Assembly (NCBI GenBank): GCA_043718025.1
Contig: JAYSWN010000203.1
Span: 1-18,766 of the forward strand
Origin: Pseudomonadota bacterium
GTDB lineage: Bacteria > Bdellovibrionota > FAC87 > UBA2466
Reading direction: 5' to 3'
Length of the DNA: 18,766 nucleotides
The position numbers and the translations under genes were made by a program. Below the pieces are notes generated by a model that had not been told where the DNA came from, searched no databases, and saw only the letters and a list, made by a program, of their open reading frames with translations. The stretch's first letter is position 1, and every line of letters starts with the position of its first letter. This document shows positions 2,314-18,766 of the stretch, in pieces.

Positions 2314-2979
2314 CTATTTTCGAGCGCGAGGGCTGCCCAAGAGTTTTGGCAACTCGGTAACTAAAAAATCAAAGTTTTCGTGGTTCACGTTGAGGGGGGC
2401 CCCTACCTGGACAACGATACGAGAACCCGGCAATGGGTAACGCTTTCCATCCCACGTCCAAAAGGCGACCCATTCGTGGCTGACTCGAATTTGGACCGGA
2501 ATGACCGGCACTCCCGATTGCCGAGCCATATGAAGTACGCCTTTTCTCAAAAGGTGGGGCGGACCGGCCGGCCCATCCGGATTAATAAAAGTGCTGAATT
2601 TTTGGGCTAGCTTTTCAATGACGCGATCAGCTGCCTTCACTCCATTGAACCCAGTTGAGCCCAGAACCAGTTGTTTAACGCCTAAGCGAAACAAAACGAG
2701 ATGAATCGGTTTCATGTACCAAGTGGGATGATTCAAAAGACAAAACGGGCTATGGGTAATGCGAAATATGTCGGCACAAAAAGCGGGCAGATTTTCGCGG
2801 TGCCACATTGCCAAGATGTGATTGGGGGAATGGGTTAGATTCTCCATACCCTCTCTGGAGATTCGACACGTGGCCCGAATCAATAGAATGTAGGAATAAA
2901 GAAGGCCGGCCACGAAATGGGAATAAGCCCAAAAGAGGGGCTTAAGAATTAACGGAATGTTTTCTACGGTGTAACTCAC
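2314..2979 (-). CDS. Lysophospholipid acyltransferase-like protein (DUF374 type)
   Basis: ILAMWH, INPDGPAGPPH..KGVLHMARQSGVPVIP and WD...PLPGSRI motifs typical of DUF374/LPLAT proteins. GTG start. Confidence 0.85.
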   Translation of the reverse strand: MSYTVENIPLILKPLFWAYSHFVAGLLYSYILLIRATCRISREGMENLTHSPNHILAMWHRENLPAFCADIFRITHSPFCLLNHPTWYMKPIHLVLFRLGVKQLVLGSTGFNGVKAADRVIEKLAQKFSTFINPDGPAGPPHLLRKGVLHMARQSGVPVIPVQIRVSHEWVAFWTWDGKRYPLPGSRIVVQVGAPLNVNHENFDFLVTELPKLLGSPRARK

Positions 2980-3062
2980 GCGTAAGATATTAGTCTGTAA
3001 ACACCCAGAGTTCTAGGGAGCTGACGTTTCGGTGGTCACGCAAAAGAGCCGCGCCCAAGTCT
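2966..3062. repeat. Direct repeat copy 1 of a ~97-bp gene junction (orphan-gene 3' end, spacer, DUF374 start)
   Basis: Aligns to 4419-4516 at about 83/98 by hand, including identical 16-bp and 31-bp blocks. Confidence 0.95.
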
Positions 3063-3074
3063 AGCGCCTTTAGC

Positions 3075-3168
3075 GCGGGTTTTTCGGGCAGATTATTCAC
3101 CTAACGTCGCATAACTCGCCTTACCCGGATCGAGCCGATGAAAAATCATGCGGTAATAGCGCCTATCC
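3075..3168. repeat. Degenerate copy A of the dispersed intergenic repeat
   Basis: Contains GTTTTTCGGGCAGATTATT (copy B: GTTTCGGGGCAATTATT). TAA-N6-TTA core at 3104-3131, ending 37 bp before the end of the terminal GCCTATCC (38 bp in copies B and D). Confidence 0.55.
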
Positions 3169-3182
3169 ATTGAGGCGTAACG

Positions 3183-4208
3183 CTATTTTCCTAACTTCTC
3201 GTAAAGTTTTTTAGTTTCGTTGGCCAGCTCTGGTCTGCTCTTGAAATAAGTTGCGAACTTAGGCACGAGAAGTTCAGTGCGAGCTTTGTAAAACTTATAA
3301 AAATCGAGATGGTATTTCGCAGTTTTGCTTAAAGCGTCTCCATAGGCCGCCGCTTTAAGTATATTTGGGGGGACGACCGCTTCGGCACGTTTCCCCAGAA
3401 GAGCGATATGAACCATCATCGCGATTCCCTCTTGCCCCAGCTCAATTGCCGCCTTCGCCTCTTCGAAGCTAGCCATGGTTGCTGCGTGGACATCCAGCTC
3501 TTCAACCGTGTGGATAAACTTTTGGGCCAGGACGTAATGCCCGACTCTAAGAACGGCATTCATTAGCGCTTCATTTTCTTTTACCGCGGTCTCCGAATCG
3601 AGAAGAATTCCTTTTTCTGGGATTTCAAGTTTCGCCATGGCGAGGTAACTGTCTCTCAGAAGCGAAGCTTTAATTTTTTCGTCACTCCACAACTCTTTGT
3701 CTACTCCAACCGACTTCAGAGTGGCTTCGTCAAAGTTTGCTAACTGTCGTTCGTGATGTAGAAATTCGTGCACCAGCGTTGAACTTTTAAGCGGCTTGAC
3801 CTCAGTGTTCACCACCATAAAGGCCTTGCCATCAAAAGGCCTTTCCAGAACTTTGCCTTTAGTAGCAAGGAAACCAACTTTATTGTGCAGGTAGAATGCT
3901 GCAGCCCTGAGACCCTCTTCTTGTCCGGATGCGTAGGACTCGCGTATCAAATCCACATCTGCCTTCGGCACCTCTTTCCCATCCAGAAAAATTGCCTTCT
4001 TAAAATCCGGCGCATCCGCGAAAACTACCTCAACTCCCCACTCGTTTATTTGCTTTAGGCGCACATCGTTGTCCGCCATTTTTGCAAGCTTGATACTGCG
4101 ATCAATGCTGAAATTTTTTCCACCAAACGGGCTGGTAAAGTCGGCGGCGAAGGCGCGCAACGAAATCAATAATGCGAACGAAATTAAGAACAGTGAATTT
4201 GTCTTCAT
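3183..4208 (-). CDS. Secreted hypothetical protein with HExxH zincin motif (possible metallopeptidase)
   Basis: Signal peptide MKTNSLFLISFALLISLRAFA. TLVHEFLHH motif, with a downstream EE as candidate third ligand. Confidence 0.7.
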   Translation of the reverse strand: MKTNSLFLISFALLISLRAFAADFTSPFGGKNFSIDRSIKLAKMADNDVRLKQINEWGVEVVFADAPDFKKAIFLDGKEVPKADVDLIRESYASGQEEGLRAAAFYLHNKVGFLATKGKVLERPFDGKAFMVVNTEVKPLKSSTLVHEFLHHERQLANFDEATLKSVGVDKELWSDEKIKASLLRDSYLAMAKLEIPEKGILLDSETAVKENEALMNAVLRVGHYVLAQKFIHTVEELDVHAATMASFEEAKAAIELGQEGIAMMVHIALLGKRAEAVVPPNILKAAAYGDALSKTAKYHLDFYKFYKARTELLVPKFATYFKSRPELANETKKLYEKLGK

Positions 4209-4336
4209 TTCGCCGTAGTAGCAGTTTCATAAAATTGACACAATGCTCTATCTGTACTTTTCACAAATAAAGAGCGAATGCTTTATCGCTGGTGAAAGTT
4301 ATCCCGATTCTTTTTAGAGGGCCTAAATTCTTTGCC

Positions 4337-4363
4337 AAAAAACGTCACCGCTAGAGCGGTGGC
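4337..4363 (-). terminator. Possible intrinsic terminator downstream of the 4476-5219 gene
   Basis: Minus strand CACCGC-TCTA-GCGGTG stem-loop followed by ACG and T6. Confidence 0.45.
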
Positions 4364-4418
4364 ACGGCTTGCGGCGTCTTTGCCGATGATGGACTCGAGG
4401 TAATCCAGACTTAAAAAC

Positions 4419-4516
4419 ACGGTGTAACTCACGCCATAAGATCCTAGTCCGTAAATGCTTCGAGTTCTAGTGCGCTTACCTTTCGGTGGTCACGCAAAAG
4501 AGCCGCGCCCAGGTCT
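4419..4516. repeat. Direct repeat copy 2 of the ~97-bp gene junction
   Basis: Matches 2966-3062. Holds the true 3' end of the 4476-5219 gene and an orphan GTGAGTTACACCGT copy of the DUF374 start. Confidence 0.95.
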
Positions 4517-5219
4517 CTAATTCATCGGTCAAATACTTATCAACGGCGGGACCGACCTCTTCCATATAGTCCTTCTCGTCCAAATCCTTTAGTTTTCCAG
4601 TGATCAAAAAATCGCTGGCCTTGCGAAAGGAGTTCACGGCTACTTTCAATGAGGCCGCCCTTTTAACAATCGCGCGAGTCCCAAGTTTTACGTCGGCGGG
4701 GGTATGGGCCCTAAGCGCGGCGGAAAGGAGGTCACCCAAACCATCGAGATAGCCGGCGGTGTAAAGAACTTCTTTGATGGCCAGTTTGAATTCGGTGCGC
4801 GGCACCGTGAAATCAACTGAAAACGGACCAGAAATCTGATGTTCACGCTTTAACGACTCTAAGCTGATGGTGTCGAACAGCCCCAGATGAATATCCAAAG
4901 TCTTTTCACGGGCGAAGTCGGTCAGCTGACGAAGCAACTGCGAGTCGCCTTTAAGTGAGGTGTCTACCGTCTTGAGAAATTGAGTTCCCTCGTAGCCGGT
5001 TAAGACGTCGCGCACTTCTGAATTACGCAGGTAAGACACGAGTTCATTTTTCCAACGCTCAATTTCTTGCGGGGTTACGGCCCGTTGATAGACCGGAGGG
5101 GGCGCTACCGTCGCCGATGCGGCAGAAAAAGTCGCCCGCACCACCAAAGGCTGGGGGGCTTCGGCGAAACACGGCTGGGTGGAAACCAAAATCAGGCACG
5201 AAAGAACGAATAGTCGCAT
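4476..5219 (-). CDS. Secreted hypothetical protein
   Basis: The ORF track starts at 5255. ATG 5219 is preferred because it follows a GAGG RBS and begins a signal peptide (MRLFVLSCLILVSTQPCFA). No recognisable domain. Confidence 0.7.
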   Translation of the reverse strand: MRLFVLSCLILVSTQPCFAEAPQPLVVRATFSAASATVAPPPVYQRAVTPQEIERWKNELVSYLRNSEVRDVLTGYEGTQFLKTVDTSLKGDSQLLRQLTDFAREKTLDIHLGLFDTISLESLKREHQISGPFSVDFTVPRTEFKLAIKEVLYTAGYLDGLGDLLSAALRAHTPADVKLGTRAIVKRAASLKVAVNSFRKASDFLITGKLKDLDEKDYMEEVGPAVDKYLTDELETWARLFCVTTER

Positions 5220-5319
5220 GGATACCTCAGTTAAAAATGTATCCTCAAATACCATGCTTTGTCAGAGAAAGCGGAGTGAATACTTGCGTAAAAGCCGTCT
5301 CTTCTATGCCTCCCCCCCA

Positions 5320-6750
5320 CTAGGGGTTAAACGAGGCCAATTTAGTTTCGATTTCAATTTTACGATTTGCCAAAGCATCCGGGTTTTCGCCAGTCAATTG
5401 ATGCCCCATCGCGGTCACTTGCTGTCTGAGTTCTTGCACGTATTGGGTGGAATAGTATTCTATGCCCAAGCCGTCCATGATTGAAGCATAACCCGTCATA
5501 TAGGGATTTTTCTGTTTGGGGTCTCCGGTCCAAGTTGGGCGTGAATGTTCGGGATAGAACGCCTGATAAACTTTAAGTAACGAAAGCATTGTCCCCATTT
5601 GGCGTTTTGCCATTTCTAAATCTACGTAAGAGTCGGCCAGCAATTTTTCGTCTTCTTCAGATAAAATACTGTCTACTTTTTTTCTATGACTTAGATTTGA
5701 AATACGGTCTTCGAAAGCGGTAATTTGAGATTTTGAGGTGTTAAGGGCCGTAGTGAACGTGAGTGGGATATTAACCATGGCGGTATTCCAATAGCTTCTT
5801 CCCACTGCAACGTTGTCCGGTAATATTGAATTTAGCTCGTTGCGGTATTCCAAAAAGGCTTGTTCGGCATTGAGCCACATTTTTTTTGCCTCTTCCACCG
5901 ACGCTCCTTCAATTTGAAACTTCTTGGCGGCAGCCAATTTAACGGACGCGGCATCCATTTTATCTACTTCAAGGGCCATCTTCCCTTTAATCTCAATGCT
6001 CTGCTGAATTTGCGTTAGCCCCATTTGCATGCGCACGCCAATCCAACCCAAATTGGTATTGGTATAACGACTAACGTTGGTCCGAATCGGCGTATTCACA
6101 AAATCTGTTGTTTCATACATTATGTTCTTCATGTTCCAAGCCGCTTGGCTCATCACGATTGCCAGAGCTCCGGTTGCTATCGTGACGGGAGCCCGAACCA
6201 ATTTTTGAGTGCTCCATTTGATCCAGCTCGGACCCTTGGCAAGATCGGGCGAACTTACGTTGCGAAGGTATTCTAAAAAGAGTGATTCGAGCGTCTTGTC
6301 GCCAATGGATCGTACGTCTTTTTGGCTCACGAGATAGTCAACGATTTGAACCAACTCGTTTTTTACTTGGTCAACCCGGCGGAGTTTTCCTGATGAGAGA
6401 TGCATACGGGCAAAGTTATCGGCAACCGAGAGAAGGTCGTTCTTTAATTGTTCGCCCGCTTCGGGGGTGACTCCGTCTTCAAAATAGGTGGTTATGTTTT
6501 TGCCGGCTAACGCTTGGTATTGTTCTGAGGTCATGCCTTCGGCGGGCCAGATTTTTCGACTTAAGTACGGCCCCGGATTCGAACGTTTAGCTAATTCGCC
6601 CATGGCGGTAAGACAGACTTTGAGCCCGGCGACGACCGCCTCTCCCGTTTTAGCGGGCTGTCGGTCACCGGGGACCGAAAGGCTTATAGTGAAAACCCAC
6701 GCCGAAACAGCCACCACGGAAAAGACTATTGTTGAACGAATTAGTGTCAT
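5320..6750 (-). CDS. Hypothetical protein with N-terminal membrane anchor or signal; mostly helical
   Basis: Long ORF (track start 6762; ATG 6750 plausible) with hydrophobic segment IVFSVVAVSAWVFTISL. No family recognised. Confidence 0.7.
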   Translation of the reverse strand: MTLIRSTIVFSVVAVSAWVFTISLSVPGDRQPAKTGEAVVAGLKVCLTAMGELAKRSNPGPYLSRKIWPAEGMTSEQYQALAGKNITTYFEDGVTPEAGEQLKNDLLSVADNFARMHLSSGKLRRVDQVKNELVQIVDYLVSQKDVRSIGDKTLESLFLEYLRNVSSPDLAKGPSWIKWSTQKLVRAPVTIATGALAIVMSQAAWNMKNIMYETTDFVNTPIRTNVSRYTNTNLGWIGVRMQMGLTQIQQSIEIKGKMALEVDKMDAASVKLAAAKKFQIEGASVEEAKKMWLNAEQAFLEYRNELNSILPDNVAVGRSYWNTAMVNIPLTFTTALNTSKSQITAFEDRISNLSHRKKVDSILSEEDEKLLADSYVDLEMAKRQMGTMLSLLKVYQAFYPEHSRPTWTGDPKQKNPYMTGYASIMDGLGIEYYSTQYVQELRQQVTAMGHQLTGENPDALANRKIEIETKLASFNP

Positions 6751-6970
6751 GCCCCTGCCCACCCAAGCGAAAAACGAACTCCGCGCCCTGAGTGTGCAAA
6801 TTAAGGGCCGTGCCGATAGGCCCTAAGGTATTGGGGCCAAACGTCTATCTGCTTCCCATCCCGACAAAAATGGTCAAACCACGAGATTCTTAAGAATTTT
6901 TTATGACGGTGAATGATTCGCTCCATGCGCCGAGCCCAATGAAAAAATAACCCAGTTTTTTCTGCGGATG

Positions 6971-6992
6971 TAGTTTATAGTAAACTATAAAC
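6971..6992. promoter_or_regulatory. Palindromic operator-like site abutting the start codon of HTH-MNT
   Basis: Perfect inverted repeat GTTTATAGT-AA-ACTATAAAC (6973-6992), with overlapping TAGTTTA-TAG-TAAACTA (6971-6987). Confidence 0.6.
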
Positions 6993-7685
6993 ATGAAGCC
7001 GGGCTCAAAATTACAACTACTCGCAATAATTGATAAAGAAGGAGCTTTGGGGGCCTCCGCTCTGGCTACGCGCCTTGGGATTACCCCCCAAGCCCTACAC
7101 CGGCACCTCAAAACGCTCTGCAACCAAGGGCTACTCGAAAAGCAAGGGCACGCTCCTCATACCCGCTACACGCGAGGCACCGAGGGCCGTTCGACCCGTT
7201 CGGGATTGCCCCCTAACAAAACCATTCATGAAACCATTCGGAGTGTTCTCGGCGCTCACCCTGGAGTGCGCTTGGTCGAACTTTTTGGTTCGGTAGCTCG
7301 CGGCGAAGCGGGCGAAAAGAGTGACGTTGATATTATCGTTTGGCTCGGCAAAGCGGAGCCTTTTTCTCGCCAGGATATTTGGCAGTACTGGGACAGGCAA
7401 ACCCGGGCAATTGATTGGGCGCAGCGAGTATCCTTAGTGGTGCGCCGTTTGGCCCCACGTCTATCGATCGACACTCTTCTGCTCGATATGCCGGAGGAAC
7501 ACGTTGCTATCTACGACCGTGGTGGTTTTTTCTCGGCCTTGAAGGAGCAAGTAGAGAGCTGGAGGAGCCGTAATGGGGCCGTGAAAGTCGCTTCTTTTGG
7601 TGGCACTCATTATTGGAAGTACTCCACTCAAGAACGGCTTTTATCTAAAATAAATTTCTCCTTGGTGCTAAAAGATGTCGCCTAA
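6993..7685 (+). CDS. Winged-HTH plus minimal nucleotidyltransferase (MNT) fusion; putative antitoxin
   Basis: N-terminal HTH (ASALATRLGITPQALHRHLKTLCNQGLL), GSx10DxD motif LFGSVARGEAGEKSDVD, C-terminal GGTHYW. Overlaps the HEPN gene by 11 bp. Confidence 0.88.
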   Translation: MKPGSKLQLLAIIDKEGALGASALATRLGITPQALHRHLKTLCNQGLLEKQGHAPHTRYTRGTEGRSTRSGLPPNKTIHETIRSVLGAHPGVRLVELFGSVARGEAGEKSDVDIIVWLGKAEPFSRQDIWQYWDRQTRAIDWAQRVSLVVRRLAPRLSIDTLLLDMPEEHVAIYDRGGFFSALKEQVESWRSRNGAVKVASFGGTHYWKYSTQERLLSKINFSLVLKDVA

Positions 7686-8103
7686 AGATCTACCCAACGC
7701 CTACCTCAAAAAATGCCAAAGCCGTTTGCGGGCTCTACAAGTTTTAATGGACGATAAAAACTACTCAGATGTCGTTCGCGAAGCCCAAGAAATTGTGGAG
7801 CTTTCATCCAAGGGAATTTTACGTATTGCCCTTATCGACCCGCCTCACCGGCACGATGTAGCCGCCGAGCTAAAGGACTCCATTTCCCAACTCGGAGAAG
7901 GGCACCGCAAGGCAATAGAAAGTCTAGCTTCTGCCAACCACTGGCTAAGAAGAGAACGCGAAATGGCCTTCTATGGAGCGGATGACTTCGATCCCACCGA
8001 AGGGTACTCGCTGGCCGACGGAAAACGCGCTTTTGAATGCGCGCAGCACGCAGTGGATCTGCTCTATACGCTGCTATCTCCCGCAAAAAAAACAAAGCGC
8101 TAA
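7675..8103 (+). CDS. HEPN domain protein (partner of MNT; putative toxin)
   Basis: YSDVVREAQEIVELSSKGILR...PPHRHDV...LRREREMAFYG, typical of MNT-associated HEPN proteins. Confidence 0.88.
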   Translation: MSPKDLPNAYLKKCQSRLRALQVLMDDKNYSDVVREAQEIVELSSKGILRIALIDPPHRHDVAAELKDSISQLGEGHRKAIESLASANHWLRREREMAFYGADDFDPTEGYSLADGKRAFECAQHAVDLLYTLLSPAKKTKR

Positions 8104-8345
8104 ATGTAATCTTGAAAGGTGCCTTTCAGCTTGTCTGAAGACAAAAATGAGACGCACTCGGTGCGCCCCCCTACTACAAGAATGACTAATTTTTTGACAC
8201 TTCTTTGCCGCGTCACAATCGGAGCGGTAGCGGTGCCGCGGATATTCTTTGCGAAACAGTGAAGAGCGAGTGGTACACCGTGAGACGCCCGGAAAACATG
8301 CGATCGGTGGCCTGCTCCGAAAGAGCAAAAGTGCGTTGCCTCACG

Positions 8346-8373
8346 AGTGACCGGCGCTAGCCGGGCACTTTTT
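8346..8373 (+). terminator. Intrinsic terminator-like hairpin between convergent genes
   Basis: AGTGACCGGC-GCTA-GCCGGGCACT stem with one mismatch, running into a T5 tract. Confidence 0.5.
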
Positions 8374-8376
8374 AAA

Positions 8377-9504
8377 CTAATTCCGCACTCCGGCGATCTC
8401 ATAAAATTCGTTACCCTCGAATCGGGCAGAGCTTTGTCCGCTCCCATAAAGCGCCATTTCAAAACAAGGTCGGAATTCTGCATCACCTTTGCTGTAACTG
8501 GTTAACTCGCCATTTAGCGAAGTAACAAAGAGCGGATCGCCTTTCTTGATCTGATCTGAGTCGGCAATGGCATTACTCACCCCTTTAGGCATGGGGGAAA
8601 TCTCGTTTCGGGACACTACCCCTGATATCGATTCACCAGGGTATTGAAAACTCACGCGATAGGAATCCTTAGAGGACGTCCCTTCAAAACGGGCTTGGAT
8701 CCATTCCGTTAAGTTTTTCCCCGCCGGCCGCGCGAGCACGCGGTCGCCTTTTTTGGCGCGAGTCGGGAATCGCTCCCACGCTTTGCTAGGCACGTAGTAG
8801 AAATCCATCGGGTCGTAACCATTACCTTTTTGTCCAAATAGCCCACCGCTCGTCGATGCTAAGCATTTTTCTATTCGGCGAGAAACGGTAACCTCCTCGT
8901 AAATCGCATAGTTTTGAATAGAGAGCACTTTGACCAATACGTTCTCCCCCGCTTTGATTTCGCGTTTGAGTTTCGACACTGTAGTCGGTTCCAGCAGGTC
9001 TTTCGTAGCTACAATAAATGGGCGTGTACTACCCAAGTCCCCGCTCGTGAAATCAATCCATCGGCAAGGAATGCCGTTTTTTGAGGAGGTGCCTTCAATG
9101 GGTTCCAACTCCCCAGATTCGGTTTTGTTGCATTGGAACTCTAGTGCTGACACCCCACCGTCAACGATCAAAGGATGGCCCGACCGTGAAAAGGTTTTAC
9201 CCCGCCGTGTCATGAGGTTACTCGACTCGGTCATGACTTTATCCGACTCTGGCATGATTTTAAGTAGTCGGTGCGACTTATCGGCTGCTTCTTTCCGGCG
9301 TTCGCATGGCATCTCAGAAATCAGCAATGTCAGGTCAGCTGCGGACCGCTCAAATCGTTTTAGCCCTTTGGCCTGCTCTGCGTCCGTAATAACAAACTGT
9401 CGTTTAGCGTTGTGCCAGTAGGCGCACTTTTCCTGCGCCAGCAAGACGGCGGCGTTTGTTTGTGCAACTAGTAAACAGAGAATGCGCGTATTAAGAAAAG
9501 TCAT
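8377..9504 (-). CDS. Secreted hypothetical protein with Tudor/Agenet/SH3-like beta-barrel segments
   Basis: Track start 9585; ATG 9504 preferred (AGGA upstream, signal-like MTFLNTRILCLLVAQTNAAVLLA). Segment KKGDRVLAR..W..ARFEG...YRVSF...VSRNEISP resembles a Tudor/Agenet domain. Confidence 0.65.
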   Translation of the reverse strand: MTFLNTRILCLLVAQTNAAVLLAQEKCAYWHNAKRQFVITDAEQAKGLKRFERSAADLTLLISEMPCERRKEAADKSHRLLKIMPESDKVMTESSNLMTRRGKTFSRSGHPLIVDGGVSALEFQCNKTESGELEPIEGTSSKNGIPCRWIDFTSGDLGSTRPFIVATKDLLEPTTVSKLKREIKAGENVLVKVLSIQNYAIYEEVTVSRRIEKCLASTSGGLFGQKGNGYDPMDFYYVPSKAWERFPTRAKKGDRVLARPAGKNLTEWIQARFEGTSSKDSYRVSFQYPGESISGVVSRNEISPMPKGVSNAIADSDQIKKGDPLFVTSLNGELTSYSKGDAEFRPCFEMALYGSGQSSARFEGNEFYEIAGVRN

Positions 9505-9650
9505 TGTTTTTCCTGAAGAGGGGTACTGCCTCGCTTTGGCGGCGTCGGCAGACCGGATCCTTTGAATTGCGTTCTGCCCCATCAAATCGGTGCTCTTTTA
9601 CGATCTAGGAAATGGTAACACGGGGGAAATAAAAGGTAACTTCCGCAAAA

Positions 9651-9764
9651 AGAGGTCCGCGGCCCTAACGCCGCGTCAGTCGGCGTTTCGGGGCAATTAT
9701 TGCCCTTAATTAAATTTACCGCCATTAGACGGTGGAAGGAAATGGCCGCTAATGCTGCCTATCC
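9651..9764. repeat. Copy B of the dispersed ~114-bp intergenic repeat
   Basis: Ungapped hand alignment to 13138-13251: 87/114 identical, 59/70 in the left part. Confidence 0.92.
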
Positions 9765-9810
9765 CTTCCCTTGCTTTTAAATGCCAATTTATAGGCCAGT
9801 GACAAAACTA

Positions 9811-11298
9811 TCACTCCGAGGCGAAGGGGTTGACCGCAAAGCCGGTGCGGACGAGCGTACGCACGGCTGGCGAGTGGAAGTCTTGCTTGCCTTTGGTTAG
9901 CAATCGAATGATCGGATCCCAATTTTCCGGACTGCTATCCGGCGCCAATGGAATGCGTATCTCGGAAACGTACTGGTATTGAAAGGGTTCTGAATTGTTG
10001 ATGCCGTCCAATATTAAGCGTTTGGTTTTGTGGATTTGAGAAAACGTATCATTGCTTTCGCGGCCGAGAAAAGCGAGTGCGGCATGCACCATTCCCGGAC
10101 TCATCTGTTCCTGCGGCGTCTGCGCAAGAATGTCGCTCGTAGCAAACCCCGCCGGGTCTTCCTCAATGGCCCTGCGGAGCAGCCCTTTCACCCCCGTTGA
10201 CCAGTCAAAGAGCGGATGGTGCATCACGGCATTGGCCCTGCTACTCAATTCATCTTCGTAATGCGAACTCACTGGTAATGAGGACTTTTCATGCCGTTCC
10301 CGCAAGTGCGTTAACCATTCTTTTAGAGCCGTCAGTCTTTTATTGTATTCGGCAAGCTCCTCCGGAGTGCTGGGGATTCGGGCTTTTTCAAAGGCTCTCG
10401 CAGGATCTTTGATTTTGGCGGCGACGGTTGCTTCGCCGCGATCATGAGTCAACGGACGGTGAATCCCTGGGCCAGGCGAACCCGACACCAAACCCTCCTG
10501 CATTACTTTGGGAATAGTGGGGCTGGGGCCACGCCGAATGCATTCGTGTGCGGCGAATGCCAACTTACTGTTTCCGGAATAGGTCAATTTAAGGACTGGT
10601 TCCCAAATCTGCCAAGGGTACCCAGGTTGAATCGGTAAACTCAGCCCGGTTGCCCAAACTGCGTGGGGATTTTCAGAAGTCATGGGACGATCAATGGCGT
10701 CCAGAATTCTTAGCTTCGTCTCCTCCACCATATAGCCGCTTTCGTCTCGCTTCAGAAAATCAAGAAAAGCCTTCACCAGCGGCTCGGTAACCGCGTGTTG
10801 CGGTAACGTGCGCAAGACCAGCGCCGTGGCGCTTCCCGTGCCATCGATTAAAATGGCCCGCTCGAGCAGAGCCTTGTTGTTCGGACTCCAATTAAAACCA
10901 TCGTGGTTAATAACTCTATCCACGAATTGGCCAAGTTTTGTCTCGTTAGCCTTGCACCATGCGGAATTTTTTTTCCTTTCTGATGGGCTATCCGAACAAC
11001 TGACCAAGGCAAATAGCTCTCCGATAGTCTTTTCAAAATCATTTCTCACCACAGAAAAAATCCGCTGCTGATTGGCATCGATTCGTTGCTGTTTTAGTCG
11101 CAGCGGCCGCTGCAACGTCTGATCGCGAGCCAATTGATCTTCAAATAAAAAGTCACTTGGGGAACTCACTTCGGCTTTATAGGTCTGTGGAGAAGACTTC
11201 TGATTTACCGCGGAATGAGCAAGAGGTTCACCGGCAAACAGCGTTTGGCCAACGAATAGCAAAAAAACGGATGAAAACTGCCAAATCAAATTTCTCAT
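9811..11298 (-). CDS. Secreted hypothetical protein with an internally duplicated ~130-aa helical domain
   Basis: Signal peptide MRNLIWQFSSVFLLFVGQTLFA. Two homologous segments begin VINHDGFNWS..LLERAI and VMHHPLFDWS..LLRRAI. Confidence 0.75.
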   Translation of the reverse strand: MRNLIWQFSSVFLLFVGQTLFAGEPLAHSAVNQKSSPQTYKAEVSSPSDFLFEDQLARDQTLQRPLRLKQQRIDANQQRIFSVVRNDFEKTIGELFALVSCSDSPSERKKNSAWCKANETKLGQFVDRVINHDGFNWSPNNKALLERAILIDGTGSATALVLRTLPQHAVTEPLVKAFLDFLKRDESGYMVEETKLRILDAIDRPMTSENPHAVWATGLSLPIQPGYPWQIWEPVLKLTYSGNSKLAFAAHECIRRGPSPTIPKVMQEGLVSGSPGPGIHRPLTHDRGEATVAAKIKDPARAFEKARIPSTPEELAEYNKRLTALKEWLTHLRERHEKSSLPVSSHYEDELSSRANAVMHHPLFDWSTGVKGLLRRAIEEDPAGFATSDILAQTPQEQMSPGMVHAALAFLGRESNDTFSQIHKTKRLILDGINNSEPFQYQYVSEIRIPLAPDSSPENWDPIIRLLTKGKQDFHSPAVRTLVRTGFAVNPFASE

Positions 11299-11437
11299 TC
11301 TGCCCCCCCAGCACCCTCGACTTATTGCAAAACATTAACCAACCTATGAGGCCAAAATTAGGGGGAATACCTGCAGTATGCGCCAGCCGAGAATCTCTCC
11401 ATACGGTCGATCTACAGTGATAGGTGGAAAAAGGTGG

Positions 11438-11477
11438 ATTAGACGCTGGAAGGAAATGACCCTTTATACCTTCTATC
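11438..11477. repeat. Partial, chimeric copy C (right end) of the dispersed repeat
   Basis: First 21 nt match copy B at 20/21; last 27 nt match copy D at 26/27. The two blocks overlap at AGGAAATG. Confidence 0.85.
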
Positions 11478-11529
11478 TGTAGCGAATCGTTGCGGTTGGA
11501 ATGCCCGCCAGTGGTGGCAGGTTTGAAAG

Positions 11530-11566
11530 AGGCCCAGGTGCTCAAAGTACCTGGGCCTTCCCTTTT
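11530..11566 (+). terminator. Strong hairpin, terminator-like
   Basis: 13-bp stem AGGCCCAGGTGCT-CAA-AGTACCTGGGCCT (one G-T pair) followed by TCCCTTTT. Confidence 0.45.
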
Positions 11567-11655
11567 CTCCGTGTCCGCTCGAAACTCCACCCCGCCAGCA
11601 GGGAAATATACAGAATTGTTAACTTTTTTCCCGTAAATGCGATCACCGAAACACT

Positions 11656-11672
11656 TGATACTATGATACTAT
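11656..11672 (+). promoter_or_regulatory. Tandem TGATACTA repeat: extended -10 / operator-like site of the RHH-MNT operon
   Basis: TGATACTA twice in tandem; each copy with the following T reads TGnTACTAT. Lies just upstream of GAGG and ATG 11679. Confidence 0.5.
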
Positions 11673-11678
11673 AGAGGC

Positions 11679-12248
11679 ATGAGTCGCCCATCGGGAAAAT
11701 TCATTGTGCGCGTGCCGCAGGAGCTTCATGAAGCCCTTAAATGGTGCAGCCAAAAAGAAGGAATCTCGCTGAACGAAGTTTGCCGGCGAAGGCTGGGGTC
11801 GGAGCCTAATTCACCAACGGTTTCTCCGTTAGTGCGGCAACTCCTGGCTCTTAAACTTCCCCTCGAAGGTATAGTGCTATTTGGCTCTACCGCCCGGGGA
11901 GAGTCCACCGCCAGCTCGGATGTCGATCTGCTTTTGGTCCTAAAGGGCGGGACCCCGGTGTCGAGAATTCTCTATGGCGCGTGGGACGACGAATCTGCAA
12001 AACCGGAAAATCGGGCGTCGTGGAAAGCGCTTTCCCCCCACTTCGTGGCTTTGCCCGAAGGGATTAAGGACGTGGGGAGTCTATGGTTCGAAGTGGCACT
12101 GGATGGCGTGATACTTTGGGAAAGAGAAAGAGTGGTATCCGCAGTGCTGTATCGCCTCCGCGATGCCATGGCCCGGGGAAGGATTACTCGAAAATTTTCT
12201 CATGGACACCCGTATTGGGTGAAGAACAGGATGACGAATGAAGAATAG
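11679..12248 (+). CDS. HicB-like ribbon-helix-helix plus MNT fusion; putative antitoxin
   Basis: N-terminal SGKFIVRVPQELHEAL...EGISLNE (HicB-like RHH), LFGSTARGESTASSDVD (GSx10DxD), C-terminal HGHPYW. Overlaps the HEPN gene by 11 bp. Confidence 0.88.
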   Translation: MSRPSGKFIVRVPQELHEALKWCSQKEGISLNEVCRRRLGSEPNSPTVSPLVRQLLALKLPLEGIVLFGSTARGESTASSDVDLLLVLKGGTPVSRILYGAWDDESAKPENRASWKALSPHFVALPEGIKDVGSLWFEVALDGVILWERERVVSAVLYRLRDAMARGRITRKFSHGHPYWVKNRMTNEE

Positions 12249-12657
12249 GTCCTTGGGCGAAGACTACTTGTTGCGGGCTAAGTTGCGCTGCGGGGCCGTA
12301 GACTACCTTTTTAAAAATAAGGCTTACGCTGACACCGTTCGCGAGTCGCAGGAGATCGTAGAGTTGGCGCTCAAAGGCCTGCTGCGCCTTTCCCACATTG
12401 AAGTGCCTCGGATCCACGACGTGGGGGAGATTCTGCTTACCCAGATAACCGCCTTGCCAGAGGAGGTTCGTCCCCACGTAGAGCATTTCGCCGACGTATC
12501 CCGCCGTCTGCGCCGAGATCGCGAGCTGGCATTCTACGGAGCGGAAGATCTCACCCCTTCAGAGTTCTACAAACGGGCCGATGCGGAGACCGCTCGCGAC
12601 GCCGCGGTCGGCATAGTGGATACCCTCTTTAAGGCGCTGAAACTCTCATCCCGGTAA
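12238..12657 (+). CDS. HEPN domain protein (partner of MNT; putative toxin)
   Basis: YADTVRESQEIVELALKGLLR...PRIHDV...LRRDRELAFYG. Homologous to 7675-8103. Confidence 0.88.
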   Translation: MKNRSLGEDYLLRAKLRCGAVDYLFKNKAYADTVRESQEIVELALKGLLRLSHIEVPRIHDVGEILLTQITALPEEVRPHVEHFADVSRRLRRDRELAFYGAEDLTPSEFYKRADAETARDAAVGIVDTLFKALKLSSR

Positions 12658-12692
12658 GAAAGAACTTCGGCACGGAATAAGATTTGTATCCT

Positions 12693-12989
12693 CTAGGCGC
12701 GCAAGTTGGCCGAGCTGGAACGGGTGAACTTACGGGATTCTTTGGTCGCCACTACGGGAATGGCCTGCTTCTCTTTATTCCGGGCAATCTCGAGATTGCG
12801 GCTAAGGGCCGCCTCGATGAAGCCCACGAACAGCGGATGCGGCGCAAACGGTTTGCTGCGGAATTCCGGATGGAATTGGCAGGAGAGGAACCACGGGTGT
12901 TTGGGTAGCTCCATTATCTCCACAAGATTCATCTCCTGGTTGGTTCCGGAGAAAAGCATACCGCGCTCTTCGAGCTGCGTTTTGTAGTG
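12693..12989 (-). pseudogene. pyrG: 3' fragment of CTP synthase (C-terminus of the glutamine amidotransferase domain)
   Basis: [14 protein letters not shown]...[41 protein letters not shown], containing the QFHPEF motif. An in-frame TGA at 12998-12996 lies upstream and the rest of the gene is absent. Confidence 0.9.
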
Positions 12990-13002
12990 TACGGCTCACC
13001 AT

Positions 13003-13029
13003 GAAAATGGGCGATTACACTTCCTATCC
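13003..13029. repeat. Degenerate right-end copy E of the dispersed repeat
   Basis: GAAAATGGGCGATTACACTTCCTATCC versus copy D GGAAATGACGCTTTATACCTTCTATCC: 18/27, ungapped. Confidence 0.5.
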
Positions 13030-13118
13030 ACCGACCACGAAGTGCAAGAGGTTCGAGCGTAGGTCTAAAGGGTTACCTGTTTTGCAAGTTTGCGCTTAGC
13101 GAGGCGCCGTTTGATCGG

Positions 13119-13251
13119 GGATAGGCGCTCTGTAGAGAGAGGTTCGCGGTCCTTACACCGCGTCAGACGGCGTTTTGGGGTACTTATTGCCCGTAATTAA
13201 ATTTATGGCGATTAGCGGCTTCTAGGAAATGACGCTTTATACCTTCTATCC
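13119..13251. repeat. Copy D of the dispersed repeat, bounded by GGATAG...CTATCC inverted ends
   Basis: 13138-13251 aligns to copy B. The left end GGATAGGCGCT is the exact reverse complement of copy A's right end AGCGCCTATCC (3158-3168). Confidence 0.9.
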
Positions 13252-13374
13252 ATGACCCGCGATGACATTCGCCAGCTATTCGCTCACAGCGCGAGTAGCG
13301 TTACGGAGCGGTACATCCATCATCGCGGTTCCAACCTCGACAAAGTAGCCCAAGTAATACGGCTATTTCCGTAG
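13252..13374 (+). pseudogene. C-terminal remnant of a tyrosine recombinase/integrase
   Basis: Translates MTRDDIRQLFAHSASSVTERYIHHRGSNLDKVAQVIRLFP*, matching the box II pattern LLGH-S-x3-T-x2-Y-x-H with catalytic Tyr. Too short to appear in the ORF track. Confidence 0.75.
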
Positions 13375-13395
13375 TGTCCCAGAAATGTCCCAGAA
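13375..13395. repeat. Tandem 10-bp direct repeat, resembling integrase arm-type sites
   Basis: TGTCCCAGAA-A-TGTCCCAGAA between the integrase remnant and the tRNA. Confidence 0.6.
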
Positions 13396-13469
13396 CGGCC
13401 AAAAATCGAGGTAGACGGATTTCAAGGCACCATGCTAAGTAACTGAACCGGTTAGCCATTTCTCAATAA

Positions 13470-13546
13470 GCGGGTGTAGCTCATTTGGCTAGAGCATCAG
13501 CCTTCCAAGCTGAGGGTAGCCAGTTCGAACCTGGTCACCCGCTCCA
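13470..13546 (+). tRNA. tRNA-Gly (anticodon TCC)
   Basis: Full cloverleaf: acceptor GCGGGTG/CACCCGC, D stem GCTC/GAGC, anticodon stem TCAGC/GCTGA with loop CT-TCC-AA, T-loop TTCGAAC, discriminator T, encoded CCA. Confidence 0.97.
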
Positions 13547-13801: not shown

Positions 13802-14062
13802 ATGGCAGTCTCTACGACAAAGATGTCTTCCAAAGGTCAGGTAGTAATACCCGATGAAATCAGAAGGAGAATGAGGCTCAAAGAAGGGGCGCATTTTGTG
13901 GTTCTGGGAGAAGGGGACACGGTTGTCTTAAAACGCGTCGCGCCACCTACGCGGGGGGATATCCGCGAATTACTAGCCGACGCCGAAAAGCAGGCGAAGC
14001 AGGCCGGATTGACTAAGGCAGACGTTCGGAAGGCTATTTTGGATGTCAGAAAACGCAGATGA
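13802..14062 (+). CDS. AbrB/MazE/SpoVT-family antitoxin
   Basis: TKMSSKGQVVIPDEIRRRMRLKEG motif, strong RBS, ATGA overlap with the PIN gene. Confidence 0.92.
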   Translation: MAVSTTKMSSKGQVVIPDEIRRRMRLKEGAHFVVLGEGDTVVLKRVAPPTRGDIRELLADAEKQAKQAGLTKADVRKAILDVRKRR

Positions 14063-14457
14063 GGATCGTTCTGGATACTAACGTCCTCATTTCTGGGCTG
14101 TTTTGGCCCTCTGGACCACCGCGGACCCTGTTGGAAAAATGGCTAGTGGGGAAGGTTTCAGTTCTCGCCTCCCAGGAGATAATTGATGAGTACCGCGCCG
14201 TCGTTCGGCGCCTGAGTCAAAAAAGAAGCATGGACGTGACAAGGCTTCTTGAGCGTCTATTGATGCTAGTGGACTACGTGATGGTCTCCCCGCTCCCCGC
14301 CCAGATCTGCGACGATCCGGACGATGACAAATTCATCGCGGCGGCAGTGGCGGGCCGAGTGAAATATATTGTCACTGGGGACAGGGCGCTACTCAGGGTA
14401 AAACGGTTTCGAAGGACGGAAATTGTCACCCCGAGCACATTCCTAAATTCTCTCTAA
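14059..14457 (+). CDS. PIN-domain (VapC-like) toxin
   Basis: MRIVLDTNVLISG, E in IIDEY, DDPDDDKFIAAA and IVTGDRALL acidic catalytic motifs. Confidence 0.92.
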   Translation: MRIVLDTNVLISGLFWPSGPPRTLLEKWLVGKVSVLASQEIIDEYRAVVRRLSQKRSMDVTRLLERLLMLVDYVMVSPLPAQICDDPDDDKFIAAAVAGRVKYIVTGDRALLRVKRFRRTEIVTPSTFLNSL

Positions 14458-14746
14458 TCAATCGGACTTCATTCCTTATCGTAGGTCGTCCCTTTTTATC
14501 CATCACGGTCATTAGGACTTTCCAAGCCTTCAAAAAAGATCCGTTATTCGACCATTCTTGAAACCTGCGATGCAGAGTGGCTCTCGACCCGTACATTGCC
14601 GGAATTTGATGCCAACTAGAACCGGTCCTAAGTATGAAAAGAAGGCCGTTAAAAATCTGCCGATCGTTAGTCCTGGGCCTTCCACCGCCCACACTCTTCG
14701 ATAGTTGTTTGCTGACAAGCCGCCACTGGATTGCGTTGAAGTCCAT
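14426..14746 (-). mobile_element. Truncated IS5-family transposase N-terminus (DUF4096-like); no DDE domain present
   Basis: W...GRPRTNDRQIFNGLLFILRTGSSWHQIPAMYGSRATLHRRFQEWSNNG matches the IS5-family N-terminal pattern. The ORF runs into the 3' end of the PIN gene. Confidence 0.85.
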
Positions 14747-18599: not shown

Positions 18600-18766
18600 A
18601 CCTACCCCTTGAAACTGGATTCTCTCTAACCTCTGCTTATCGACACACCACGCAAAAATCTTAAACCCATGTGAATACCCGGCGACTTTGTCGCCCCCCT
18701 TTTCCCCAGCGAAAATGTCGCCCCCCACTAAACTAAGCCTCTGAAATTCATCATGAGTTGGGGGGC

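Follow-up and report, generated by a model that had tools for sequence, protein, structure and literature searches.

Copies of a repeat resembling an ISCR-type oriIS end punctuate variable DNA in a Bdellovibrionota genome

Introduction

ISCR elements spread resistance genes, yet neither their termini nor their rules of target choice are well defined. The distinction between Y1 and Y2 enzymes is the basis for placing a single-tyrosine transposase with the ISCR subgroup of the IS91 family. For ISCR1 and ISVsa3 (ISCR2), a model outlined in parts of PMC13023784 has DNA capture followed by recombination into homologous sequence. For IS801, another IS91-family element, passages of PMC3189936 describe right-end miniatures of 229, 360 and 679 nt in Pseudomonas syringae and attribute most genomic IS801 fragments to reorganisation, not transposition.

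Here, we analyzed an 18,766-nt stretch of contig JAYSWN010000203.1 (the window) that carries five copies of a dispersed repeat. The kind of element that we describe is already published, in the form of the 229-nt right-end IS801 miniatures (passages of PMC3189936). Like these, as portrayed there, the repeat is a continuous fragment with an intact ori end, no transposase, a fixed left end inside its parent and no inverted repeats, and its parent is probably able to carry adjacent DNA; association with toxin–antitoxin systems, described for IS801 pieces in sections of PMC6354349, also recurs. The differences lie elsewhere. IS801 miniatures stop at any of several target-like tetranucleotides, those passages giving no further consensus, and are rare in genomes (2/17 fragments), whereas the repeat has one boundary across a whole transposase clade and 15–25 copies in several genomes. 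Moreover, unlike in IS801, the enzyme is of ISCR type and the tetranucleotide beside the ori end is absent.

Results

All five window copies share one orientation (plus strand), as originally predicted. Copies B (9644–9766) and D (13131–13253) are full 123-bp solo ori-end mini-elements with 91/123 identical positions; recomputing the 87/114 ungapped identities claimed for 9651–9764 and 13138–13251 gave the same figure. The predicted copies are thus real, but their boundaries shift, the unit being 123 bp and not ~114. B lies within one contig of sequencing run X1, and D is 83% identical across 123 bp to a transposase-linked ori end in a relative (G002:C27). Copy C (11437–11480) is a 44-bp right (ori) stub with 35/41 identities to the end of D, and copy E (12990–13031) is a 42-bp right stub whose nearest relative is the G016:C57 copy (93% over 43 bp). 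Copy A (3063–3170), previously regarded as degenerate, is indeed diverged but not merely decayed, since a sister-subfamily ori end 3′ of the G003:C300 transposase matches it at 96/109 positions (88%); A lacks the left part.

Profile searches of the genome at E ≤ 0.01 returned 26 merged hits on 19/234 contigs, among them seed copies that match by construction, while C and E score under the threshold. One hit is an opposite-strand self-hit, leaving 25 places; the reversed genome gave 0 hits in the same searches. Genome-wide, orientation is mixed: neighboring pairs less than 7 kb apart comprise four in the same and three in opposite orientation (one of these artefactual).

In four relatives (G002, G006, G026 and G003), an HUH transposase (Y2_Tnp plus zinc domain) lies 5′ of the repeat on the same strand; the window holds none. 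The repeat starts 63–70 bp 3′ of the transposase stop at G002:C27 and G026:C152, likewise at G006:C72 (about 65–75 bp across the related genomes), and the A-type repeat lies downstream of its transposase at G003:C300. PF04986 and PF14319 were both present in the 3/3 transposases scanned. The clade enzymes comprise 487–498 aa, with 43.7% identity to the ISCR1 transposase and 41% to that of ISVsa3 (overall range 41–45%). Their catalytic segment, which contains one tyrosine, aligns with those of ISCR1 and ISVsa3 and not with the short two-tyrosine IS91-type proteins. Nonetheless, unlike ISCR1 and ISVsa3, they form a separate clade: the ISCR clade Ia model NF052416 scored 185–414 bits for 7/7 proteins, under its 925-bit cut-off, and in the tree they branch apart from ISCR clade Ia. 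The last ~20 bp of the repeat match three plasmid elements, among them ISCR1 and ISVsa3, at their oriIS ends; the family shares with ISCR1 and ISVsa3 the position of this motif, about 190–240 nt past the stop. The ISCR1 22-mer quoted in a passage of PMC13023784 also aligns with this end motif. Judged by these sequence matches, we identify the repeat as the probable oriIS end of an ISCR-type (IS91-family) rolling-circle element, here without its enzyme gene.

Terminal inverted repeats are absent, the two ends being unlike in a 33-copy alignment, and no target-site duplication was found, the flanks sharing no information. An inverted-repeat MITE was rejected on these grounds; of the MITE-like character proposed earlier, the non-autonomous IS derivative stands, without the inverted repeats and target duplications. 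Unlike in IS91, IS801 and IS1294, no target tetranucleotide adjoins the ori end: in 76 right flanks, information does not exceed ~0.05 bits once past the third base following CCTATC. Regions 5′ of the family elements share almost nothing, and no left end (terIS) of the autonomous element emerged from them with which to compare the internal site described below.

The left border of solo copies is fixed to a single base, within a motif of the transposase-linked elements, TT(A/T)ATATTnnnY^CGTA. A pyrimidine occupies position −1 in 52/52 distinct solo flanks, and information is absent beyond −3. Among 13 copies with an uninterrupted reference, per-base identity is 8–12/13 up to −1 and 3–6/13 from +1. 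At the right border, nine copies with a reference show identity of 1–2/9 over the three bases after CCTATC and 6–9/9 thereafter, mapping the element end to CCTATC+3. Because the uninterrupted references place these three bases inside the element, we dropped the idea that they are a target tetranucleotide mimicked by CGTA. The internal motif occurs 51–63 nt past the transposase stop in 11/11 family elements, 0/16 other-family elements and 0/3 plasmid elements, ISCR1 and ISVsa3 differing in this respect too. It was derived from the family's own sequences, and its sole independent positive is L302, the 1/60 metagenomic elements with the motif, which is placed within the family clade (100/99). In G026, solo copies are identical or near-identical to the transposase-linked copy from ^CGTA through the end. 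This fixed internal boundary, conserved across the clade, is what is new here.

The copies lie exactly at borders of variable modules and truncated genes, which bears out the prediction that they punctuate variable DNA. That all are intergenic needs qualifying: D is flanked by truncated def on the left and a truncated integrase on the right, and E by truncated pyrG. The cargo between A and X2 is a 341-aa orphan with an HExxH motif (3183–4208, minus strand), and that between B and C a 495-aa orphan (9811–11298, minus strand); neither matched Pfam or NCBIfam. A HicB-like/MNT plus HEPN toxin–antitoxin-like pair (11679–12657, plus strand; PF05534, PF01909, PF05168) lies between C and E. Adjoining E, a pyrG 3′ fragment (12693–12989, minus strand), matched by PyrG models, agrees with the resident pyrG on contig C195 at 137/173 positions (79%), indicating a foreign allele. 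A 3′ fragment of def (peptide deformylase; 21 codons plus stop, 13065–13130, minus strand), 80–81% identical to the intact def of G001 and G002, ends exactly at the left boundary of D. Exactly at the right end of D begins the C-terminal tail of a tRNA-Gly-linked tyrosine integrase (13254–13374, plus strand), followed by the island's anchor, tRNA-Gly(TCC) (13470–13546, plus strand). The segment 13254–13546 is 90–92% identical to G001 and G002, in both of which the integrase frame extends further upstream. The window appears to hold a tRNA-Gly island of stacked modules, its integrase cut at D.

A 98-bp direct repeat, with copies X1 (2966–3062) and X2 (4419–4516) on the plus strand and 83/98 identical positions, encloses A plus the HExxH gene; no third copy was found in the genome. 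It may be the scar of homologous integration of a circle. The same X–mini–gene–X arrangement occurs at G026:C9, and in G006 the acrB 3′ end is duplicated (85%) around an orphan gene plus a mini-element. Truncated genes adjoining copies include def, pyrG, an integrase, purA and acrB, and the gene fragments beside copies are foreign alleles (79–89% to resident genes). In G007, a purA segment, 87–92% identical to the resident gene, spans from the right end of one copy to the left end of the next. In G033, four copies lie within an ~11-kb block that four congeners lack, the corresponding core genes there being separated by 30 bp to 1.7 kb.

Where a left reference exists and the right end is intact, 0/9 copies proved to be simple insertions with contiguous flanks; the available references are mostly captured gene fragments, which biases against detecting plain insertions. 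No homolog spanned the junction of any of 42 joined flank pairs, and empty-site searches against congeners returned islands and captured fragments, with no allele having both flanks contiguous. Contigs from four sequencing runs (three of very low depth) contained no excision joints at the repeats; assembly may join the wrong flanks at near-identical copies, and among the listed contigs of sequencing run X1 none bridges the middle of D.

Consistent with the original prediction that the sites are not canonical attC, the repeat has neither an attC-like nor any other consensus fold on either strand (single-copy z-scores of +0.5 to −2.6 in 12 folds), and no TIGR02249 match in the genome exceeded the cut-off for an integron integrase. 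An Rfam 15 search of the window, among the checks suggested beforehand, gave the tRNA as its sole match at E ≤ 1. A REP/REPIN origin was rejected, with no consensus fold, short internal palindromes 77% paired and covariation not above shuffles, as was a coding repeat (1-bp indels, no frame in common). Two degenerate patterns gave 0 matches in viral contigs, a weak test of phage origin as the patterns were exact. Modules of the pdif/Xer type carry a 28-bp XerC–XerD site with exchange at its 6-bp center; a dif-like motif matched nothing in the genome, which gave no host dif to compare with.

Discussion

We consider it probable that the 123-bp copies are non-autonomous ori-end mini-elements, released at the conserved internal site, that carry neighboring DNA into arrays. 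The match to a transposase-linked ori end, the base-precise borders, and the foreign fragments and duplications at those borders support this. The most likely route would be rolling-circle read-through copying of neighboring DNA, then stacking by homologous recombination. By analogy with IS91, IS801 and ISCR1, an HUH transposase, supplied in trans or active in a previous host, would nick the right end and copy leftwards; copying would halt at the internal site, and the mini-element would be joined to pyrimidine-ending target DNA. From the mini-element, copying would continue into the left-hand DNA and end at an arbitrary point, yielding a circle of cargo plus mini-element. Homologous recombination would rescue this circle, either via a resident mini-element, to give mini–cargo–mini, or via the cargo, to give a diverged direct repeat. 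The halt at the internal site was not seen directly, because no testable copy had contiguous flanks and no homolog spanned the joined flank pairs. Mixed orientation genome-wide and the absence of transposase hits in this genome and in G007 also weigh against this reading, as does the case made in PMC3189936 for reorganisation as the source of most IS801 fragments.

We are doubtful of a wider reading, in which this clade would have evolved an internal site devoted to releasing a 123-bp capture module, and its hosts would use stacks of cargo plus mini-element as a gene bank resembling an integron but operated by an HUH transposase. The units would come as copies from sister species, form head-to-tail stacks and be excisable from ori junction to ori junction, the transposase gene itself being one unit (G026:C152).

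We also doubt that the copies are passive ori ends: bare 123-bp insertions, with arrays and truncated genes arising from later deletions and homologous recombination and no transposase-driven cargo capture. In favor of this rival, IS801 pieces act mainly as recombination sites according to portions of PMC3189936 and PMC6354349, truncation points varied in many copies, and a transposase was detected neither in this genome (G000, 92% complete; 0 PF04986 hits, best protein match E 0.26) nor in G007. In addition, 8/25 places have a tRNA less than or equal to 5 kb away, compared to 8.6% of random points, and the copies therefore sit in islands, where decay is common. Random deletion, however, would not predict right junctions that are base-precise even where the right flank is unrelated to the left, and the foreign origin of the flanking fragments and the exact fit of the G007 purA segment between two copies also favor capture.

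An unlikely alternative casts the internal site as another origin-like nick site instead of a terminator, with each 123-bp end joined separately by one-ended strand exchange, so that every copy is a junction of two unrelated DNAs and a free mini-element never exists. Bottom-strand sequences following the internal site and the ori end are alike (both begin ATGGA in three elements), yet the likeness is short and, in the G026, G015 and G008 elements, weaker. The lack of contiguous flanks would fit, as would a pyrimidine before only 3/9 right junctions in the reference sequences, compared to all left flanks; against this, the bias of the references applies, and premature termination has a published precedent in passages of PMC3189936.

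We regard it as very improbable that the conserved TAATAT-like box serves as the −10 element of a promoter for a small RNA that begins near CGTA and comprises the 123-nt segment, with solo copies arising from or acting through that RNA. The distance from the box to the left boundary suits the spacing of a sigma-70 −10 element to its start site, but no −35 box was seen by eye, the box is missing from solo copies, and the segment showed no consensus fold on either strand, covariation above shuffles or Rfam match.

Sites of a site-specific recombinase (an integron-, dif- or res-like cassette system) are largely refuted and hardly credible: the window copies are co-oriented, with cargo of orphan secreted proteins and toxin–antitoxin genes and an 11-6-11 core that we take to be superficially Xer-like, but the entire unit corresponds, by its matches, to the non-coding 3′ end of an ISCR-type element, junctions fall at both its ends and not at a central core, and an attC fold, an integron integrase over cut-off and a recombinase among 135 neighboring ORFs were all absent. 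As the repeat turned out to be an IS end, an outcome named beforehand as refuting, the earlier proposal of an undescribed cassette system finds no support.

In integron attC arrays and in pdif modules, short direct-repeat sites lie between orphan and toxin–antitoxin modules; unlike these, the repeat has no hairpin or cognate recombinase, its modules contain broken genes, and its junctions lie at the repeat ends. Genome scans should thus heed that ori-end repeats mimic integron or dif arrays. Eukaryotic non-autonomous Helitrons move by a rolling-circle mechanism and, like the repeat, are enzyme-less elements tied to captured gene fragments; the analogy is behavioral only, as host domain and enzyme architecture are unrelated. 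Compared to ISCR1 and ISVsa3, most copies here lack a transposase, and the cargo consists of orphan genes, toxin–antitoxin pairs and core-gene fragments instead of resistance genes.

This clade offers dozens of natural junctions, which define a minimal 123-bp substrate, both of its borders at base resolution, and a conserved internal site. How a single-tyrosine ISCR transposase nicks, terminates and chooses its target thereby becomes open to direct testing, with harmless cargo. Such junctions are also relevant beyond the enzyme. They may help to account for how islands of orphan secreted proteins, toxin–antitoxin pairs and core-gene fragments assemble in a poorly sampled lineage. Finally, the consensus has an A/T periodicity peaking at 9.5 bp, with 0/2000 permutations as high; we do not regard it as a special feature, because the last 125 bp of ISCR1 show one too (10.5 bp, p about 0.004).

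Repeat unit and its link to ISCR-type transposases

An alignment of 33 full-length copies from the genome of the window and its relatives defined a unit of ~123 bp with sharp borders, which begins with CGTA, contains CCTATC at its end and has no inverted ends. The window carries two full copies, B (9644–9766) and D (13131–13253), whose similarity proved as first described (87/114 identities, ungapped), together with copy A (3063–3170) and two right-end stubs, C (11437–11480) and E (12990–13031). Near the left end, some copies (loci L002, L013, L020 and L043) carry a 9–10-bp insertion and a single copy (L030) an 8-bp deletion, each about one helical turn.

In three related genomes (G002:C27, G026:C152 and G006:C72), the repeat begins ~65–75 bp past the stop of a Y2_Tnp transposase gene, on the same strand. 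Copy D is 83% identical across 123 bp to the transposase-linked copy of G002, and copy A shows 88% identity to the equivalent stretch of a sister element from G003. The linked transposases (487–498 aa) share 41–45% identity with those of ISCR1 and ISVsa3, match NF052416 with scores under its cut-off, carry a single tyrosine where the catalytic segment aligns, and group in a clade of their own (support 100/99; midpoint-rooted tree of 35 rows). Over its final ~20 bp, the repeat can be aligned to the termini of three plasmid elements (ISCR1, ISVsa3 and one more), as well as to the 22-mer of ISCR1 oriIS given in PMC13023784. The repeat is almost certainly an ISCR-type ori end. No transposase was found in the genome of the window, which is 92% complete.

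At G026:C152, the transposase unit lies inside a run of four copies. Elsewhere, a mini (a solo copy without the transposase gene) is fused to a transposase-gene fragment of its own family, the two facing opposite ways (L105, G002:C531, 1201–1620). Transposase-bearing elements also occur in or beside integrative elements (L094, G015:C79, with a coupling protein and serine recombinase; L097, G029:C114; L091, G006:C72, with a tyrosine-integrase piece), a likely vehicle between species.

Distribution

The repeat occupies 25 places on 19 contigs in the genome of the window, compared with 0 in the reversed genome; eight of the 25 lie ≤5 kb from a tRNA, a proximity shared by 8.6% of random points. 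A sequence-only model detected it in 15/33 same-family genomes and 0/27 more distant ones, and the public records that carry it are MAGs labelled Bdellovibrionaceae or Pseudomonadota. Solo ori ends extend beyond the repeat's own transposase family, because two metagenomic ISCR-type elements outside the clade have a second, solo ori-end copy nearby, 96–97% identical (L318:8976–9065, L343:20–150).

Junctions and proposed mechanism

Copy D lies between 21 codons from the 3′ end of def, at its left border, and the tail of a tRNA-Gly integrase, at its right end; G001 and G002 carry this integrase in intact form. E adjoins a pyrG piece with 79% identity to the resident gene. The ~114-bp repeat originally described is real, but that inventory missed a 98-bp direct repeat (85% identical, 2966–3062 and 4419–4516), which brackets copy A and the orphan HExxH gene and has no further copy in this genome. 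In G007 (8 contigs), a purA segment with 87–92% identity to the resident locus fills the interval between two successive copies, from the right end of the first to the left end of the second. In G006, a duplicated acrB 3′ end (85% identity) flanks an orphan gene plus mini, and this repeat-mini-gene-repeat layout is also present at G026:C9. A four-copy block of ~11 kb in G033 is missing in four congeners.

On balance, these elements probably spread by mini release, read-through capture and stacking by homologous recombination, steps that we infer from IS91, IS801 and ISCR1. Copying would end early at an internal site, shedding a mini; read-through starting at minis would copy left-hand DNA into circles, and homologous recombination via mini or cargo could stack them. 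According to PMC13181058, IS91-family elements have unlike ends, lack target duplication and mobilise adjacent DNA upon failed termination. IS801 sheds right-end minis of 229, 360 and 679 nt, a known precedent for enzyme-less ori-end derivatives, and can carry adjacent DNA (PMC3189936); IS801-caused deletions are limited by toxin-antitoxin systems (PMC6354349). Our literature search, which covered mainly open-access papers, turned up no description of an internal boundary conserved across a clade, nor of elements like these in the present lineage.

Flanks were contiguous at 0/9 testable copies, copies have mixed orientation across the genome of the window, no excision joints were seen and MAG assemblies may mis-join near-identical copies, all of which weigh against a simple picture. 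That the copies are passive recombination scars is conceivable, if unlikely.

G001 and G002 repeat the layout of integrase tail plus tRNA-Gly; the integrase lies upstream of the tRNA 5′ end and is cut at differing points (window 13375–13469; L108, L109, L113, L116, L125). An A+T-rich, promoter-like region of ~200 bp recurs beside secreted-protein genes, often joined to minis (G026: L089, L100, L106, L128, L135).

Borders and internal motif

For the comparisons of flanks with references, hand-picked rows with one best reference per copy were used, dropping transposase-linked and mis-called junctions. Identity between left flank and uninterrupted homolog holds through −1 and falls at +1 (13 copies), and identity with the right reference begins at the fourth base past CCTATC (nine copies); the element therefore ends like ISCR ends. 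This right-border mapping leaves no target tetranucleotide adjoining the element. Among 52 distinct left flanks of solo copies (six transposase-type flanks left out; kin copies not independent), positions as far as −4 carry almost no information; T occupies −3 in 27 flanks and −2 in 34, and the base at −1 is a pyrimidine in all 52.

The left border falls within the motif TT(A/T)AT(A/G)TTnnnY^CGTA (^, border), located 51–63 nt past the stop in 11/11 family elements having downstream sequence. It is present in 0/16 elements of other families, 0/3 plasmid elements and 1/60 metagenomic elements, the positive one lying inside the clade; since the motif was derived from the family's own sequences, only this metagenomic positive is an independent case. 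At least three other subfamilies defined by sequence (G026, G033 and G015 types) have the same start. This site could instead be a second origin at which junctions are made independently, a reading we consider improbable.

Other readings

An RNA-based route is very improbable: consensus secondary structure was absent on both strands, covariation in short palindromes did not exceed that in shuffles, and an Rfam search suggested with the original prediction gave no match. Recombinase sites, as first proposed, are barely credible, with no integron integrase over the cut-off in the genome of the window and no recombinase among 135 scanned ORFs neighbouring copies.

Besides the repeat copies, the window holds a second MNT-HEPN pair between A and B (6993–8103; winged-HTH-MNT, 230 aa, and HEPN, 142 aa), with no detected repeat copy at its borders, and, right of tRNA-Gly, an AbrB/MazE-VapC (PIN) pair (13802–14457) and an IS4/5-family transposase fragment (14426–14746). 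Separate families of short palindromic repeats, not related to the ori end, lie between genes in G007 and the genome of the window (L021:12235–12336, L190, L192, L194; G000 C53, C145, C196 and others). Positions 6896–6928 and 18635–18766 are ends of other multicopy elements, common to contig ends elsewhere in this genome (four and seven other places).
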